From Thermoplasmata archaeon (GTDB lineage Archaea; Thermoplasmatota; E2; JACPAO01; JAHFTW01): DNA of 64,000 bases. Shown here in pieces: positions 52,245 through 59,425 of this stretch. The stretch is taken from assembly GCA_034667725.1 (NCBI GenBank), contig JAXDQS010000005.1, positions 96,001 through 160,000 of the forward strand. The letters are read 5' to 3'. The notes beneath the pieces were generated by a model. That model was not told the origin of the DNA and ran no database searches. It saw only the letters and a list, made by a program, of their open reading frames with translations. The position numbers were made by a program, and so were the translations under genes. Within the stretch, counting starts at the first letter, position 1. Each line of letters begins with the position of its first letter.

Positions 52245-53438
52245 TCAGGCTTTGGCGATAATCTTCACCACATCGCCCGCCCCCAGCACGTGGTCCGCCC
52301 CGATGGTGCGCTTGGTGCGGCAGTCGATGGCGCGGATGAAGTGCTCCGCCAGGTCGGTGTGGACCTTGGCCGCCAGTTGCCGCGCCGTCGTCCCGGGAGG
52401 CACCAAGTGGCAGTCGGGCAGCACGCGGTCCTGCTTGTCGGTGAGCTTGGCCTCGTCCTCGACGGGGAACACCGGGATGCGGCCCAGCAGCCGCAGCACC
52501 GCCGTCTCCAGCGCAGGCACGACGCCCGTCGAGCCGTGCGGCTTCAGCACGTGGTCGCGGATGTAGTCGAGGCCCTTCTGCTGCGGCGCGGACAGGGTCC
52601 CCTTGACGGTGAACTCGGAGCCGCCGGGCGCGTAGTCGACGAGGCCCGCGGCGGCGGCCTTCTGCAACGCCAGCTCGGACTGGGCGCTGGTGCGCACCGC
52701 CGGCAGCCCGCCCGCCTCCGCCTCCAGCTTCGCAAGCGCGGCCGGCTCGGCCAGGTCGGCCTTGTTGAGCGCCAGCACCATCGGCTTGGACGAGCGCCGC
52801 AGCGCCCGCGCCAGCTCCAGCAGCCGGGGGCCGCCGAGGTCGGTCGCCTTCAGGCCAACGAGCCCCGCGTCGCGCAGGCCCTTGGCCGCGAGCGCCTCGG
52901 TGATGCCGATGCCGCCGAGCTTCTCGGCCAGCACGACCTCCAGCTTGCGGTTCTCCATCTGGCTGCGCTTGGCGATGCGGTCCCAGCCGTCGGCCAGGAT
53001 GCCCTCGATCCAATGGTCGACCTCGTCGGGCAGGAACCGGATGTCGGACGCGACGTCGTGGCCGCGCTGGGGCAGGACGTTGCCTTCGGCGTCCGTGCCG
53101 CCCGAGGCGTCGACGACGTGCACCAAAACGTCGGCCTGCGCCAGGTCGCCGAGGAACTTGTTGCCGAGGCCGCGGCCCTCGTGGGCGCCGGGGACGAGGC
53201 CGGCGACGTCCACCAGCTCGATGGGCACGTAGCGGGTGCCGCCGACGACGCGGCCGTGGCGGGGCGTGCTCTGGACGCCGAAGGCGGGGCCCGGATCCGG
53301 GACGCGCACGGCGGCGACCCCGTGGTTGGCCTCGATGGTGGTGAAGGGGTAGTTGCCGATGGCGGCCTCGGCGGCCGTGGCGGCGGCGAAGAACGTGGAC
53401 TTGCCGACGTTGGGTTTGCCGACGAGGCCGACCTTCAA
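52245..53438 (-). CDS. Obg-family translation-associated GTPase (archaeal YchF-like)
   Basis: GKPNVGKST, NYPFTT, DVAGLV, NKAD, C-terminal TGS domain. Confidence 0.93.
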   Translation of the reverse strand: MKVGLVGKPNVGKSTFFAAATAAEAAIGNYPFTTIEANHGVAAVRVPDPGPAFGVQSTPRHGRVVGGTRYVPIELVDVAGLVPGAHEGRGLGNKFLGDLAQADVLVHVVDASGGTDAEGNVLPQRGHDVASDIRFLPDEVDHWIEGILADGWDRIAKRSQMENRKLEVVLAEKLGGIGITEALAAKGLRDAGLVGLKATDLGGPRLLELARALRRSSKPMVLALNKADLAEPAALAKLEAEAGGLPAVRTSAQSELALQKAAAAGLVDYAPGGSEFTVKGTLSAPQQKGLDYIRDHVLKPHGSTGVVPALETAVLRLLGRIPVFPVEDEAKLTDKQDRVLPDCHLVPPGTTARQLAAKVHTDLAEHFIRAIDCRTKRTIGADHVLGAGDVVKIIAKA

Positions 53439-53463: not shown

Positions 53464-54060
53464 TCAAATCGTTGGCGGGGCGCCGCCCGGCTGGAGGGCG
53501 TCGTGGTTGGCGTGCGACGGCGCGCCGGCGCCGGGCAGGCCGATCTGCGACTGCTCGACGTCGGTCAAGAGCTCGGCGAGGCCCTGCTGCGGGAAATAGC
53601 GGTTGCTCTGCAGGCCGCGGCGCTCGTGCACCAGGCCCTCGGCCAGGAGCGGCTCGATGGAGGCGCGGAAGGTCTTGCGCGAGACGTTGACGGCGTCGCA
53701 GACGTCCACCTGGCGGGCGCCGGGGTGGTCGCGGATGAAGGCGGCGACCTCCTGGCGGCGGCCTTGGTGGAGGACGGCCAGCAGGCGGGCCCGGCCGGGC
53801 TCGACCTCCTGGGGGAAGAACCGGCGCTCGCGGCCGGCCTCGATGGCGGTGACCATGTCGGTCTTGCCGAGCAGGCTGAGATGGTACTGGACGGTGCCCC
53901 AGGGCTCGCCGGCGGTGCGGCAGAGCTCGCTGGCGTGGATGCCGGGGCGTTCGTGGATGATGGTCAGGAGCCGCCGCCGAAGCGGCTGCTCCCCAAGGCG
54001 GGCTTCTTCGACGCGGCCCACGAGTGAGCCGGCAAGCAGTTGGGCAACAAGGTCGAACAT
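53464..54060 (-). CDS. Tandem winged-HTH transcriptional regulator
   Basis: IIHERPGIH..EL...GTVQYHL and FIRDHPG..QVDVC double wHTH. Confidence 0.85.
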   Translation of the reverse strand: MFDLVAQLLAGSLVGRVEEARLGEQPLRRRLLTIIHERPGIHASELCRTAGEPWGTVQYHLSLLGKTDMVTAIEAGRERRFFPQEVEPGRARLLAVLHQGRRQEVAAFIRDHPGARQVDVCDAVNVSRKTFRASIEPLLAEGLVHERRGLQSNRYFPQQGLAELLTDVEQSQIGLPGAGAPSHANHDALQPGGAPPTI

Positions 54061-54072
54061 GGTGTTTCACTC

Positions 54073-55662
54073 CTAAGCGTACCCGCTCGCATCCCGCGGC
54101 TCGGGGGGCGAGGGGGGTCGTACTGGCGGCGCGGCACTTGTAGTTGCCGCTCTGCCCATCCTTTCCTGCACGTCCTTCAGGAGGGCGGGGGTCCGCCGAA
54201 CCGCTTCCTCGAACGAGGAGCGGGCCTCCTCCAGGCGGCCCAGCTCGTGCTGGGCGACCCCTAGGACGTAGTGGAGCACGCCGTCGGTGGGGCGGCGCGT
54301 CTGGAGGTGGTGCCGGACCTCGCGCACGACGACGCGGTGCCGGCCGGACTTGGACAGCGCGATGGCGCGGCTGAGCATGGCGTCCTCGGAGTCGGGGCGC
54401 CGGAGGAGGATGCGGCGGGCGTCGCGGGCGGCCCGGCGGAAGGCGTTGGCCTCCAGGGCGGCCTCGACGTCGGCCAGGATGGGGAGCCGGCGCATCCGGC
54501 GGTAGACCAGGTAGGTGCAGGCGAGGCCGGCCACCAGGACGACGGTGCCGGCGGCGACCCCTTCCAGGATGGCGTCCGGCGGCGAGGCGTAGACGGGGCC
54601 GTCGGGGATGGGGTGGCCCTCGGCGTCCACCGGGACCAGGTCGAGGTCCAGGACGCTGCCCTCGGGGCGGGCCGCGAGCCCCTGGGGGCCGCGCAGCTCC
54701 AGCTGGGGGCTGCTGACATGCACGGGCGGGTCGTCGGCGGCCGCGACCATGCCGGTGGCGGACTGGACGACGGCGACGCCTTGGACGTAGGTGGAGAGCA
54801 GCGACGGGCCGGACCAGGAGGCGGCGGCGTCGGGGGAGCTGAAGGTGAGCACGCCGTCCTCGACCAGGACGCGCAGGAAGACCTCGCGGACCTCGTGCAG
54901 GCTCTCCTGGCCGGGCTGGCCGGGGGCAAGGGCGGACTCCCAGCGGCCGCTCTCGAAGGCCCAGGCGCGGCTCGGGGTGGCGACCTCGCCGGAGATGCCG
55001 ACGGCCTCGAGGGTGAAGTCGCCGCGCCAGGTGACGGTGGCGGGGCCGGCGCTGGCCGAGTGGACGTGCGGCGAGCTGGCCTGGGGGCGGGACCAGTAGG
55101 GTGAGGCCTGCGGGCTCTGCTGCTCGATGGGGACGTTGTTGTCCGCGATGCCCATGTGGGTCAGGATGGGCTCCTGGAGGACGCCGACGCGGGGCGAGGT
55201 GGTCTGCGCGTCGTGGCGCAGGGTGCTGGCCTCGTTGAAGACGATGATGGTGAAGCCGGCCTGGGCGCCGCCGACGACGAGGCGGGCGTCGCGGCCGGAG
55301 TTCTCCACGGGCTCCGGGGCCTGGCCCAAGGAGCGCATGTACTGGCCGGTGTAGGCGGCGACCGAGTCGGGCTCGTCCATGAACGGGACGTCCTGCGGGA
55401 AGGGGGCGCGGGCCTCGTGGCCTTGGTCCTCGTATTGGATTGTGGTGATGCGGGCGGCCTCGATGGTCAAGGTCGGGGCGGGGCCGGTCTGGTTGCGCGC
55501 GAGGTGGCCGAACTGGACGAGCCCCTCCTCGCGGACGTCGGCGTCGAACACCACGGCGTCGCCGTTCAGGTTGCCGCGGGAGCTGGGCGTGGCCGAAGCC
55601 GATCCGGCGACCAGCAGGGCGGCGATCGCCGCGAAGACGAGGATGCGGGCGACCAGGCTCAG
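54073..55662 (-). CDS. Single-pass membrane protein: ectodomain + TM + cytoplasmic TPR (copy B)
   Basis: Frame open up to a signal peptide starting at CTG 55662; TM GTVVLVAGLACTYLVY; TPR motif LHYVLGVAQHELGRLEEA. Confidence 0.78.
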   Translation of the reverse strand: MSLVARILVFAAIAALLVAGSASATPSSRGNLNGDAVVFDADVREEGLVQFGHLARNQTGPAPTLTIEAARITTIQYEDQGHEARAPFPQDVPFMDEPDSVAAYTGQYMRSLGQAPEPVENSGRDARLVVGGAQAGFTIIVFNEASTLRHDAQTTSPRVGVLQEPILTHMGIADNNVPIEQQSPQASPYWSRPQASSPHVHSASAGPATVTWRGDFTLEAVGISGEVATPSRAWAFESGRWESALAPGQPGQESLHEVREVFLRVLVEDGVLTFSSPDAAASWSGPSLLSTYVQGVAVVQSATGMVAAADDPPVHVSSPQLELRGPQGLAARPEGSVLDLDLVPVDAEGHPIPDGPVYASPPDAILEGVAAGTVVLVAGLACTYLVYRRMRRLPILADVEAALEANAFRRAARDARRILLRRPDSEDAMLSRAIALSKSGRHRVVVREVRHHLQTRRPTDGVLHYVLGVAQHELGRLEEARSSFEEAVRRTPALLKDVQERMGRAATTSAAPPVRPPSPPEPRDASGYA

Positions 55663-55669
55663 TGTGCCT

Positions 55670-56233
55670 TCACGCTCCGATGGGCGAGACGGTCAGGTAG
55701 GTCTTGAGGGGACCGCCGGAGGCGGCGGACGCCCAGTCGATGCGGCAGGCGTCGAGCTCGTACATGGTCATCCCGGAGTAAACCTGGACGCGGGGGCCGG
55801 AGCCTGAGCCGCTGCCGCCGAGGGGCAGGCACACGACGCGGTGGGCCTCGACGCCGTCCTCCTCGCCCTCCTCGGTGACGGTGACGGTGGCGGGGACGCC
55901 GTAGCGGGCGTCGCGCAGCACGGTCCCCACAAGGGGGCCGTCCTCCAGGACGCCGTCCCGGAAGACGCAGTTGTTGACCACGATCATGTTCAGCACCGGG
56001 TACATCTTGATTCCCGGGCGGTCGCCGGTGCCCTCGACGGGGTAGCAGGTGCCCTCCACTTGGCGGTCGGGGACCATGGAGTAGTCGACCGTGATCTGCA
56101 GCTGCACCGGGAGGCCATGGTAGGGGCAGCTGCTGTCCACGCAGTAGTCGCCGGCCGAGGCCAGGCCGCCGGGGGCCGCGACGGCGGCAAGGAACAAGGC
56201 CGAAAGGACGGCGGGGACGACCGGGCGGGCCAT
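55670..56233 (-). CDS. Small Cys-containing secreted protein (copy B)
   Basis: Signal peptide; CYPVEGTGDRPG..YPVLNMIVVNNC. Confidence 0.75.
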   Translation of the reverse strand: MARPVVPAVLSALFLAAVAAPGGLASAGDYCVDSSCPYHGLPVQLQITVDYSMVPDRQVEGTCYPVEGTGDRPGIKMYPVLNMIVVNNCVFRDGVLEDGPLVGTVLRDARYGVPATVTVTEEGEEDGVEAHRVVCLPLGGSGSGSGPRVQVYSGMTMYELDACRIDWASAASGGPLKTYLTVSPIGA

Positions 56234-56320
56234 GGAGACGGCAGGGACATTCCTTGCGAGGGCCTATAGGTTCGCAACCGTTTCCTTTCTGCCGGCCAGA
56301 AGGGCAACAGGAGGGAAAAG

Positions 56321-57886
56321 TCAGGCGTAGCCGCCCGGCTCCTGGCGGGACGGGCCGCGCGCCGCCGCCCCGCTGGCGGGCGTCGCCGGCCGGGGGTCGT
56401 CGCCGAGGCGCTTCTCGACGTCCGCCTGGAGGGAGGGGGTGCGCTGGACCGCCTCCCGGAACGAGGTGCGCGCGTCGGCCAGCTGCCCAAGCTCATGCTG
56501 GGCCACGCCGAGGACGTAGAACAGGACGCCGTCGGAGGGCTGCCGGGTCTTGACGTAGGGCTCGATCTCGCGCACGACGGCGGTGTGCCGGCCCGACTTC
56601 GAGAGCGCGATGGCCAGGCCCAGCCGGGCGTCCTCCGCCTCGGGGCGGCGGTGCAGGATGCGGCGGGCCGAACGGGCGGCGCGGCGGTAGTCGCGCGACT
56701 CGAGCGCCGCCTCGACCTGGCCCATGGTGGGCACGTTGCTGCGCTGGTGGACGCGCCAGCCGCCCATGACGCCGAGGGCCAGCAGGGTGCCGGCCGCCAT
56801 GACGCCCTGCACCACCGGGTCGCGCGGGCTCTCCATCACGGGCAGCGCCAGCGGCTGGCCGTCGCCGTCCAGCGGGACGACCCCGACGTCCATCTGGCGG
56901 CCGAGCGGCCGCAGCGCCAGCAGCACGGGCGGCGCCAGCTCGATGGCGGGCTCCTGGACGCGCTGCTGCGGGCCGCCGTAGGCGCCCAGCAGGCCGGCGG
57001 CGTCGGTGAGGCCCGCCGTGCCCGACAGGACGCTGTTTTCGACGTTGGGGCCGGACCACTGCAGCGCGCCGTCGCTGTCGGCGAACTCCAGGACGCCGTC
57101 CACGACCTCGATGCGCAGGAACGATTCGCGCAGCGTGGTGGCGCCGGTGGCGCCCGTGGGGCCGGCTGGGCTGACGGGGGACTCCCAGTGGCCGCTCGCG
57201 ACGTCCCAGCCGCCTTCGCTGCCGACCAGGCGGCCGGACAGGCCGACGACCTCGATGGTGAACGTGCCTTCCAGGCGGAGCTTGAAGCCTTCGGGGGCGG
57301 TGGTGCGGACGTGGGGGCCGCTGGCGACCGGGCTCGACCAGTACGCCGACCCCTTGCCGCTCTCGACGCCGTCGGCATCCTCCACGCCGTCGAGGTGGTT
57401 GAGGGCGGGGTGCTCCACCACCTCGAGGCAGGCCTCGCCGAGCGAGGAGGATTGGCCGAAGGTGCCCATCGAGAACACCATGACGACGTAGCCTTCCTGG
57501 GCCTCCTCCGGCGTCACCTGCGCCTGGGTGGCTTCATGCTGGACCGGCGGCGGCGCCTGGCCGAGCGAGCGCAGCGTCTGCGCCGTGGACACGCTGTAGG
57601 GCTCGCCCACGGGCGGCGTGGCGCGCACCACGTGGCCCTCGTCCGACACCTCGTAGGTGTGGATGCGGGCCGCCGCGATGCTCCAGGCGGGGGGCTCGGA
57701 GCCGCCCCCGCCCATGTGGACGAACTGGCCAAGGCCGCGCTGGAGCACGTCGCCCTCCACGTGGGCCGTGGCGGCGGACAACGTGCCGCCGACCGGCTCG
57801 GCCGCGGCCGCCGGCAAGGCGAGCACGGCCAGGAGAAGGGCGGCCGCGGCCCGCAGGCCGGGCCAGCTCCAGCGCGACGGGTTCAA
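56321..57886 (-). CDS. Single-pass membrane protein: ectodomain + TM + cytoplasmic TPR (copy A)
   Basis: TTG start overlaps the upstream stop; signal peptide; TM; TPR motif LFYVLGVAQHELGQLADA. Confidence 0.78.
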   Translation of the reverse strand: MNPSRWSWPGLRAAAALLLAVLALPAAAAEPVGGTLSAATAHVEGDVLQRGLGQFVHMGGGGSEPPAWSIAAARIHTYEVSDEGHVVRATPPVGEPYSVSTAQTLRSLGQAPPPVQHEATQAQVTPEEAQEGYVVMVFSMGTFGQSSSLGEACLEVVEHPALNHLDGVEDADGVESGKGSAYWSSPVASGPHVRTTAPEGFKLRLEGTFTIEVVGLSGRLVGSEGGWDVASGHWESPVSPAGPTGATGATTLRESFLRIEVVDGVLEFADSDGALQWSGPNVENSVLSGTAGLTDAAGLLGAYGGPQQRVQEPAIELAPPVLLALRPLGRQMDVGVVPLDGDGQPLALPVMESPRDPVVQGVMAAGTLLALGVMGGWRVHQRSNVPTMGQVEAALESRDYRRAARSARRILHRRPEAEDARLGLAIALSKSGRHTAVVREIEPYVKTRQPSDGVLFYVLGVAQHELGQLADARTSFREAVQRTPSLQADVEKRLGDDPRPATPASGAAARGPSRQEPGGYA

Positions 57887-58419
57887 CCCAGGGCCTCCAG
57901 CGACAAGTCCAGGACCACCGTGAACGTGTCCCAGCTTGCGCCGGGGACCAGGGAGCAGGCATCGAGCGCGTAGCTGGACAGGACCGCGTAGACGTTGACC
58001 GACGGCGGGTCGATGGCGCCCGCGGGCGGGCTGCACGCCACGGCGACGGCCGTCCAGGAGTCGCCGTCGTCGCTCGTGATGGTGACGTTGGACGGCATGC
58101 CGCGGCCGTGCCCGAGGCCGCCTGCCAGCACGACGGGGCCCTCCAGCATGCCCACCGGGGCGCCGACGGAGCATTGGTTGATCGTGTACATGTTGAGGAC
58201 GGGGTAGACCACGAGGCCCGGCTCCTCGCCGGTGCCCTCGATGGGCTGGCACTCCTCCCTGCCATCGCGGGGACCGAGGGCCGTCATGATTCGGGCGTCG
58301 GCCTTGACGGTGGCGTCCTCCCAATAGGAAGTGCCGTAGCCCGCGGGGGCGGCGGCGGCCGGTCCAAGGGCGATGGCAAGCAACGCAGCCAGGCCGCAGG
58401 AAAAAGCGCGGGATCGCAT
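57883..58419 (-). CDS. Small Cys-containing secreted protein (copy A)
   Basis: Signal peptide; CQPIEGTGEEPG..YPVLNMYTINQC. Confidence 0.75.
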   Translation of the reverse strand: MRSRAFSCGLAALLAIALGPAAAAPAGYGTSYWEDATVKADARIMTALGPRDGREECQPIEGTGEEPGLVVYPVLNMYTINQCSVGAPVGMLEGPVVLAGGLGHGRGMPSNVTITSDDGDSWTAVAVACSPPAGAIDPPSVNVYAVLSSYALDACSLVPGASWDTFTVVLDLSLEALG

Positions 58420-58708
58420 GGAACGTGCCAGAAGAACGGGCCGCACGATGCAAGGCTTCGGACGCCGGCAATGCCCAACAGTAGGCCAAACGTCGTTGGA
58501 TGTATCCAACCTGCCGGGCGAGGAGCACGCGATCGCGAGGGGGTTTGTATGCTCGTCGATGGAGGAAAGCCACGGCGGCGGCGCCCCGGGAAGCGCGGCG
58601 GGGGCGACCCTTGGAAGACGGCCTGCGCGGCCAAGGGCACGGGTTGGCGCTCGCCTCACGGGAGCGGCTGCGCGAGGAGCCCGTGGGACCGATGCTGCCG
58701 TGAGCGCC

Positions 58709-59425
58709 TTAGTGCTGCGACTTCTCCAGGACGCGCACGTGCTCGCCCTTGACGGTGATGGGGATCGGCACCATGGACTCGATGAGCTCCACCGTGATCT
58801 CCTCCTTGGTGTCGTCGACGCGGGTGACCTTGGCCTTCTCGCCGCGGAACGGACCGCTCACGAGCTCCACGATGTCGCCCTCCGCGATCTTGGCGACGGC
58901 GGACACCGGCGTCAGGAAATGCGCGATCTCCGAGAACGGAATGTCCACCGGAATCTTGCGGGTGACCACCTTGCCGCGGCGGTCGCGCGCGATGTTGCCG
59001 TTCTCGTCCCGGACCTCCTCCTGGCGCGTCACGAGGGCGCGGGCGTAGGAGACGCCGCGGATGCCCTTCTCGGCCTCCAACGGGTTCGAGGTCTCCAAGA
59101 AGACGAAGCCGCGCAGCTCGGCGGGGCTCAGGATGGCGCTGATCGGGAGCTTGAAGCGGCGCGCCTTGTTGCCCAGCGCCTCCGCCACGCGGCGCTCCTG
59201 GCCGACCTGGGTCTTGAGGACCAGGATCTGGCTGCCGGTGAGCGCCTCGGGCTCGGTGTCCGCGATCTCGGCGCGCTTGGCCTTCTTGCGACGCGGCGTC
59301 TTGGCGTCCTTCGGCTCCGCGGGGTTGTCCTGCGTGACGGCGGGCGTCGCGGTGGGCTTGGCCTGGGCCTTCTGGGCCAGCTCTTCCTTCGTGGGTAGGA
59401 TGCCGAGGTCGCCTTCGTCCTGCAT
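58709..59425 (-). CDS. spt5: Transcription elongation factor Spt5
   Basis: KTQVGQE, LRGFVFLE (NGN domain); GDIVELVSGPFRGEKAKV (KOW), VPIPITV. Confidence 0.93.
   Translation of the reverse strand: MQDEGDLGILPTKEELAQKAQAKPTATPAVTQDNPAEPKDAKTPRRKKAKRAEIADTEPEALTGSQILVLKTQVGQERRVAEALGNKARRFKLPISAILSPAELRGFVFLETSNPLEAEKGIRGVSYARALVTRQEEVRDENGNIARDRRGKVVTRKIPVDIPFSEIAHFLTPVSAVAKIAEGDIVELVSGPFRGEKAKVTRVDDTKEEITVELIESMVPIPITVKGEHVRVLEKSQH

Follow-up and report, generated by a model that had tools for sequence, protein, structure and literature searches.

A conserved three-gene cassette of Thermoplasmata with a duplicated sensor half: a candidate kinase-free transmembrane signalling system of secreted hairpin proteins, TPR receptors and a wHTH regulator

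Analysis of a 64,000-nucleotide stretch from the genome of a Thermoplasmata archaeon (GenBank assembly GCA_034667725.1, contig JAXDQS010000005.1, positions 96,001 to 160,000; hereinafter the window; ~72% GC) uncovered five consecutive minus-strand open reading frames (ORFs; 53464-58419). In transcription order these code for a small secreted protein (smA), a membrane receptor with cytoplasmic tetratricopeptide repeats (TPRs; recA), a second small protein and a second receptor (smB and recB), and a double winged helix-turn-helix (wHTH) regulator (Table 1). The locus is best explained by a three-gene cassette whose sensor half has been duplicated in tandem; this cassette is a real, conserved and undescribed gene system whose function we infer. 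We establish here its gene order, paralogy, topology, domain identities, co-occurrence, conservation gradient and a cis-element; new are the arrangement of two sensors on one regulator together with its age, the counts that link the receptor tail to the regulator gene, a W-x-x-P class of receptor tails, and a recB gene missing its start codon.

The ORF calls bear out the single-strand gene order proposed in an initial annotation of the window, and the identities bear out the paralogy: smA and smB are 39% identical (BLAST, E-value 9e-18), and recA and recB 42% identical across 494 aa (E-value 2e-99). The further claim that all junctions other than that between the modules are overlaps or gaps of at most 12 nt holds for smA/recA, where stop and start overlap by 4 nt (TTGA), and for recB/wHTH, spaced by 12 nt; for smB-recB (7 nt) it stands only if recB is read from a CTG. 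The modules are spaced by 87 nt (recA-smB), and recA lies 2.26 kb from the wHTH gene that it shares with recB. The motifs singled out earlier (RSLGQAP, YWS.P.AS.PHV, SG.WES, WSGP, the TPR tail and GYA-COOH) are all present. A Pfam scan detected only TPRs in the receptors, had no match in the small proteins and found no kinase or other enzyme domain in any of the five proteins, in agreement with the absence of such a domain at first sight.

The predicted recA protein consists of a signal peptide (residues 1-29), an all-beta ectodomain (~30-357), a transmembrane (TM) segment (358-380), three TPRs with a cap helix (385-495) and a disordered tail (496-521) ending in EPGGYA; recB ends in DASGYA. 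The type-I receptor topology (signal peptide, ectodomain, one TM segment, basic residues after it, cytoplasmic TPR) is thus as it was first described. The TPRs of recA match Pfam TPR_16 at 33.7 bits (cut-off 32.7) and TPR_19 at 30.1 (cut-off 25), and those of recB fall below the Pfam cut-offs, yet are homologous to recA. Both receptors match the ectodomain profile at E-values of about 1e-83 and retain every invariant residue of the family. A word-indexed search recovered only 13 receptor relatives among 5.8 billion proteins, named 'Thermoplasmata archaeon' and in one case 'Halobacteriales archaeon'. With the ectodomain profile, a full HMMER search returned the representatives of 143 clusters formed at 50% identity; almost all of these are 450-600 aa long, with an N-terminal hydrophobic segment and one TM segment at ~340-390 as scored by a script. 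Signal peptide, ~320-aa ectodomain, TM segment and TPR are combined in about 115 of the 143 with the ending [G/A]-Y-[A/V/T/S/G] (GYA in 53, AYA in 25; hereinafter the Y-x tail), preceded by a linker that varies in length and sequence across the family; the consensus that we propose is acidic-x-x-[G/A]-Y-A-COOH. The family is present in 12/12 genomes of the genus, 19/24 of the taxonomic family and 4/6 from two other families of the order, with several matches in many genomes, and in 0/10 genomes from other families of the class. We take the three-gene cassette to be restricted to a single order of Thermoplasmata. Fused ectodomain-TM-wHTH proteins, which the initial annotation had proposed to look for, were found neither among the 143 ectodomain representatives (no match of ~700 aa) nor in a search for longer proteins starting from the wHTH, the latter being weak evidence.

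To place the cassette in context, all family matches were fetched from 41 related genomes and scanned with local profiles, and 54 receptors had at least 450 nt of downstream sequence. A wHTH gene lies within 200 nt downstream (4-200 nt) on the same strand in 34 of these 54, and within 2.4 kb in 8 more. The duplicated cassette as seen here recurs at the locus L001, and single copies occur at L002, L004, L024 and L025; L026 has a divergent wHTH and L027 none. The cassettes of the genome under study lie at unrelated sites, with proteins of only 20-30% identity, and their linkage is therefore more than inherited synteny. The three gene types likewise occur together well outside this locus, also where the paralogues are distant and the genomic sites unrelated. 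The Y-x tail correlates with an adjacent regulator. A wHTH gene lies directly downstream of 31 of the 42 receptors with Y or F at position -2, as against 3 of the 12 without; if any wHTH within 2.4 kb is counted, 36 tailed receptors have one and 6 do not, as compared to 6 and 6 of the untailed receptors (Fisher p = 0.016, a significance that the test overstates since the loci are related). The genome under study has six Y-x-tailed ORFs on four contigs, each with a wHTH directly downstream, the two of this locus sharing one. Four of the six match the ectodomain profile; the ORF at C1:119459 came above threshold only in a whole-genome search with a 13-sequence profile, and that at C3:660027 was assigned by architecture and tail alone. 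A seventh paralogue in this genome ends in DPSVA and has no wHTH directly downstream.

Two side observations concern the receptors. A minority ends in [F/W/Y]-W-[L/M/Q]-[L/Q]-P instead of the Y-x tail (P0108, P0111, P0114, P0131 and P0140; L047 and L060), and in both cases with a readable context a directly downstream wHTH is missing; the W-x-x-P tail could represent a second docking motif, recognised by some other partner. Further, the giant proteins P0052 (5589 aa) and P0127 (1857 aa) match a short stretch of the ectodomain profile 16 and 5 times, respectively, the best stretches being profile positions 167-190 and 259-298; a conserved strand motif of the ectodomain may serve as a repeat unit in large surface proteins.

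The small protein smA has a signal peptide followed by two Cys-loop hairpins, the first loop being C-x25-C with the motif C.P.EGTG..PG...YPVLNM...N.C and the second a degenerate copy ending in Y.LDAC. In both smA and smB the first half aligns on the second half in BLAST, and each therefore holds two copies of a Cys-closed loop. Pfam and NCBIfam have no match to smA, no toxin-like family or fold was found for it, and its Atlas model is poor (pLDDT, the predicted local distance difference test score, 0.32; all feature matches below 0.9). A word-based homologue search with smB retrieved only the L001 orthologue. The small partner proteins are not alignable across cassettes and are hypervariable outside the loop; a same-strand small ORF nevertheless lies directly upstream of 47 of 58 receptors, ending 10-70 nt before the core of the receptor signal peptide. 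All 47 products begin with a hydrophobic stretch, their mature part spans 55-215 residues, and in 44 of them a C-x12-32-C loop lies within the last 70 residues. In the main clade this loop reads C-x-P-V ... P ... N-P-[VIL]-L-[GN] ... D-x-C; elsewhere it has ...V-D-P-D-G-C. Both smA and smB are versions with two such loops, and the C.P.EGTG... motif is this loop. In a distant paralogous cassette of the same genome (L008; G000:C10:163589-165984), the small partner resembles fibronectin III, as judged by eye only, and has a C-x17-C loop at its end; its receptor ends in EGYT, and its 146-aa wHTH gene overlaps the receptor stop.

The regulator matches the Pfam families PF24266 HTH_HVO_0163_N (2.7e-13, 50.2 bits; cut-off 31), HTH_20 (29.6; cut-off 27) and HTH_24 (33.1; cut-off 21.9), with MarR_2 listed beside HTH_24, and its PDB matches are ArsR-family proteins, so that it is ArsR-like as judged from these matches. 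TM segments are absent from the regulator (maximum 19-residue hydropathy 0.84). Examples of its paralogues in this genome are found at C1:231265-231711, C2:96374-96811 and C3:233192-233617.

Comparison of the window with L001 revealed a gradient of conservation, from 95% identity in Spt5 and 93% in the GTPase, through 90% in the wHTH and 83% (A) and 94% (B) in the TPRs, down to 63-65% in the ectodomains and 58-60% in the small proteins; TPR and wHTH are thus about as conserved as their housekeeping neighbours. The A and B pairs of the window share 37-38% identity in their outside parts. Across the family, identity amounts to 55-72% in the wHTH, 40-54% in the cytoplasmic domain and ~17-36% in the ectodomain, and conservation is low in the receptor TM segments. 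The extracellular pair changes rapidly and in concert, with the inside held constant, and the gradient between the window and L001 fits the earlier suggestion of variable sensors feeding a conserved output. With a GC content at third codon positions of ~95% and an amino-acid identity of ~60%, synonymous rates are unreliable. In a quick tree the recA and recB clades are sisters (support 99 in the Shimodaira-Hasegawa-like approximate likelihood ratio test, SH-aLRT), each holding the copies of both the window and L001; the duplication is accordingly older than the divergence of the two species. Between spt5 and the YchF-like GTPase gene, the main-clade cassette keeps its synteny and has apparently been inherited vertically.

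The full-length recA model (pLDDT 82.5) comprises an all-beta ectodomain, one long TM helix and seven cytoplasmic helices. Its helical part matches three-repeat, peptide-binding TPR domains, namely those of Hop/Sti1, CHIP, PP5, Sgt2 and YrrB (Z 14-16, root-mean-square deviation 2.0-2.5, 111-116 residues) and also PlcR (Z 13.7). As Z-scores of 14-16 are at or slightly above the tool's common level for helical repeats, these matches establish a TPR fold but no more than that. In fold searches the full-length model gave mostly matches to its TPR. The ectodomain was also searched alone, in a model built on 48 sequences (pLDDT 93.7; pTM, the predicted template modelling score, 0.90) with strands of 20-43 residues. 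Foldseek returned aerolysin-type toxins, secretins and barrels (E-value about 1e-4, TM-score at most 0.13, probability at most 0.33), and the best match in an exhaustive alignment with VIA-align covered 100 of 330 residues at Z 5.6, a score lower than the usual noise of the tool. Neither Foldseek nor the exhaustive aligner thus found a solved fold like that of the ectodomain, which does not prove a new fold. Complex prediction for the recA cytoplasmic domain with the wHTH gave scores of 0.00 and 0.01 against a mark of 0.32, a result that weighs neither way.

Orthologous cassettes have a box, TTCG[GA][CT]A[GA]..[GA]GG.A[AC]C, upstream of the small-protein gene and 6-8 nt before a GCAA[GA]CCTTTTAC element, which we read as a B recognition element (BRE)/TATA; box plus TATA precede the small-protein gene in 12 such cassettes. 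The elements upstream of smB and smA (Table 1) suggest a separate promoter for each module, with similar control of both. The intergenic DNA around GTCCGAAGCCTTGCA has diverged between the window and L001. A genome-wide scan with a position weight matrix (PWM) of the box lacked the specificity needed to define a regulon or name further targets.

The start of recB is unusual. Its signal peptide, LSLVARILVFAAIAALLVAGSASA, is in frame with the rest of the gene, and there is no ATG, GTG or TTG between the upstream stop and this signal peptide. GTG 55554 is the first canonical start; it comes after the peptide and would yield a 493-aa product lacking a signal peptide. An in-frame CTG (55662) lies 7 nt past the smB stop. 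A GTG overlapping that stop opens a 4-codon frame (GTG AAG GCA CAC TGA) offset by one base from recB, so that a -1 shift is needed to join the two. The L001 orthologue, on an independent contig (L001:8430-8470), likewise has no canonical start before its signal peptide: an ATG overlaps the stop (TGATG), a -1 shift is again needed, and an in-frame CTG lies 10 nt past the stop. The gene caller had shortened this orthologue to 450 aa. Translation of recB would involve either a non-canonical CTG start or a -1 shift.

Table 1. Cassette genes, promoter elements and flanking genes, numbered by position in the window
Feature	Position	Strand	Description
smA	57883-58419	-	178 aa; small secreted protein
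recA	56321-57886	-	521 aa; TTG start
smB	55670-56233	-	187 aa; smA paralogue, small secreted double Cys-loop protein, 6 Cys
recB	54073-55662	-	529 aa if read from in-frame CTG 55662; recA paralogue
recB start region	55554-55673	-	CTG start or -1 shift
Double wHTH regulator	53464-54060	-	198 aa; common to both modules
Conserved box CGGCAGAAAGGAAAC	56280-56294	-	before smB, module B promoter; candidate operator
BRE/TATA-like element AACCTATAGG	56263-56272	-	just downstream of the box, before smB
Variant box CGGCAGGTTGGATAC	58502-58516	-	~85 nt upstream of the smA start
Block GTCCGAAGCCTTGCA	58449-58463	-	~30 nt upstream of the smA start; identical in L001
Spt5 gene	58709-59425		flanks the cassette on the smA side
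YchF-related GTPase gene	52245-53438		flanks the cassette on the wHTH side

These findings lead us to a tentative reading, to which we give a little less than an even chance, namely that the cassette is a kinase-free signalling system, in which the receptor TPR and tail would control the regulator as in the SdpC/SdpI/SdpR system; all its binding steps we infer. The hairpin protein would bind the ectodomain as a ligand or co-receptor, and binding would change the state or oligomerisation of the receptor. The TPR and C-terminal tail would in turn hold the soluble regulator at the membrane or release it, and the regulator might then act at promoters where the conserved box adjoins the BRE/TATA, those of both modules here among them. 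Phosphorylation would play no part, and two diverged sensors would converge on one output. A bolder version, possible but distinctly more doubtful, is that this is a new class of archaeal transmembrane signalling with neither kinase nor second messenger: an ectodomain of new fold would read the hairpin protein, the TPR and the Tyr-Ala tail would gate the regulator, and the two pairs would let the cell combine two cues from outside, possibly sent by its neighbours. A role in cell-cell or kin signalling is at this point speculative.

Membrane control of a transcription factor in the absence of a kinase is of a known kind; here it would be built from unrelated parts, and in archaea. SdpI controls the autorepressor SdpR by holding it at the membrane. 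The SdpC/SdpI/SdpR system of Bacillus subtilis (PMC2910880) resembles the cassette in its three kinds of protein (one secreted and disulfide-containing, one in the membrane, one an ArsR-family wHTH) and in having no kinase. SdpI differs in being polytopic, with no large ectodomain and no TPR, whereas the receptor is single-pass and has a 320-aa beta ectodomain and a TPR with a Y-x tail; there is no relation in sequence or fold, the gene order is another, the wHTH is double, the system is archaeal, and sequestration would here be by analogy. No SdpI-family domain was matched in the receptors by Pfam at E-values of up to 1, and they have one TM segment after the signal peptide. In the FecA-FecR-FecI and RsgI-SigI systems (extracytoplasmic function sigma/anti-sigma pairs), a single-pass protein likewise links an outside sensor to a transcription factor encoded by a neighbouring gene, with many paralogous modules per genome; the anti-sigmas are N-in, whereas the receptor is N-out and C-in, an inverted topology. 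To our knowledge archaea lack sigma factors, and neither sigma-70 regions nor an anti-sigma domain was matched by Pfam or NCBIfam in the cassette proteins. The RRNPP systems (PlcR/PapR, Rap, NprR) likewise combine a TPR domain with an HTH output and an adjacent gene whose small product is secreted; RRNPP proteins reside in the cytoplasm, where they bind short peptides that the cell has taken back up, whereas here the TPR is tethered to the inside of the membrane and the partner is a folded protein of 150 aa outside. The transmembrane transcription regulators (TTRs) ToxR/ToxS, TcpP/TcpH and CadC (PMC10269533) also control transcription from the membrane with no kinase, some with a small periplasmic partner (ToxS, TcpH); they join DNA-binding domain and TM segment in one polypeptide, whereas the wHTH of the cassette is separate, soluble and free of TM segments. 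The cassette is ruled out as a TTR in the sense of that paper, given a wHTH with no TM segment, a receptor with no DNA-binding domain, and no fusions found. Literature searches on HVO_0163, on archaeal membrane TPR/wHTH proteins and on Thermoplasmatota TPR transcription factors found no description of the cassette, in keeping with the original remark that no described archaeal system of this layout is known.

Several points weigh against control of the regulator by the receptor. The 26-residue tail of recA is not docked on the TPR in the full-length model (pLDDT ~33); and the invariant residues of the first A helix (E392 and E396, by sequence and predicted helix position) are acidic, unlike the classical carboxylate clamp, which leaves a clamp binding the receptor's own tail unsupported. 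The tail-regulator association has exceptions, as 6 of the 42 tailed receptors have no nearby wHTH and 3 of the 12 untailed ones do have one directly downstream, and the counts, taken from loci of related genomes, are not independent. The PWM of the box is unspecific when applied to the whole genome: the site of module B comes in 21st place, and several of the higher-scoring matches resemble ribosome-binding sites. Finally, the 2.3-Mb genome has ~23 double-wHTH paralogues of the PF24266 type (E-value < 1e-8), of which only five follow a receptor; as most do not, the regulator family is not dedicated to receptors, and the adjacency of receptor and wHTH could reflect plain operon autoregulation.

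Autoregulation of this sort is the core of an unlikely alternative, in which the products form a structural or adhesive envelope complex anchored by the TPR, and the wHTH sets operon expression only, with no signal from the receptor. It would accommodate the large wHTH family, most of whose members stand alone, as well as the very long beta strands of the ectodomain with their weak, unspecific likeness to oligomerising aerolysin-type and secretin proteins, and the fast evolution of the outside parts is expected for any exposed protein. It leaves unexplained, however, why a two-residue C-terminal motif on a flexible tail is kept across clusters at or below 50% identity and why this motif tracks the adjacent regulator; moreover, up to six cassettes per genome, each with a co-diverged regulator, look more like a sensory expansion. 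We regard as improbable a toxin- or bacteriocin-sensing immunity or kin-recognition unit, in which the hairpin protein would be an antimicrobial or identity factor, and the receptor would sense or neutralise it and turn on expression through capture of an ArsR-like repressor in the manner of SdpC/SdpI/SdpR. The same three-part kinase-free logic with an ArsR-family regulator speaks for it, as do small proteins that are secreted, predicted to be disulfide-bonded and hypervariable outside the loop, and duplicated pairs whose divergence would suit specificity variants. Yet the receptor is a single-pass protein with a large ectodomain and not a polytopic SdpI-family member, nothing toxin-like emerged for smA, and the synteny and apparently vertical descent of the main-clade cassette are unlike the usual mobile bacteriocin loci, which are not normally inherited in this way.

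The Y-x tail could also be taken for a partial HbYX (hydrophobic-Tyr-any residue) motif docking the receptor on the 20S proteasome, with a TPR-bound regulator or other client degraded at the membrane in a signal-dependent manner. The proteasome activators PAN, Cdc48, PbaB and Blm10 (PMC12352868, PMC3605417) likewise have a disordered tail ending in Tyr-X-COOH, and the penultimate Tyr with a free carboxylate after a disordered linker, kept in most of the receptor representatives, is the HbYX core. According to PMC12352868, Tyr-bearing tails with no hydrophobic group are called partial HbYX, and occupancy of the hydrophobic pocket opens the gate of the archaeal proteasome. In the receptors, by contrast, the hydrophobic position is Gly or Ala, each protein has a single tail, unlike the ring-shaped activators, and the receptor is neither an ATPase ring nor an assembly chaperone. 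There is also no local precedent, MEFL being the ending of the Cdc48-like ATPase in this genome and SAKR that of another AAA-type ORF, with a single Walker A, and we hold this idea to be very improbable. The Cdc48-like protein (G000:C1, plus strand, 758 aa, double Walker A) has Phe, not Tyr, as its penultimate residue. Equally hard to credit, and if anything the least probable, is a signal-induced intramembrane proteolysis that would free the TPR tail to act on a cytoplasmic regulator. Such release had been raised in the initial annotation, and the single-pass topology is compatible with it, this being the sole point in its favour; it finds no support, inasmuch as no site-1, site-2, rhomboid or other protease gene is present in the cassette in any context read, the TM segments show low conservation as noted above, and the receptor has no DNA-binding part to release. 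Kinase-free control of the regulator by the receptor TPR and tail remains our preferred reading, at the tentative level given above.

Archaeal transmembrane signalling is known mainly from two-component and chemotaxis-type systems and a few membrane-bound regulators. If the preferred reading is true, a multi-copy, lineage-wide, kinase-free cassette adds a new way of sensing in archaea. Its ectodomain matters for fold classification, as a confident model for which no solved relative was found, and its parts are small, with soluble domains that can be expressed and with a two-residue tail and a promoter box that offer precise mutational targets. The cassette could also offer an entry point to protein-based communication between archaeal cells.

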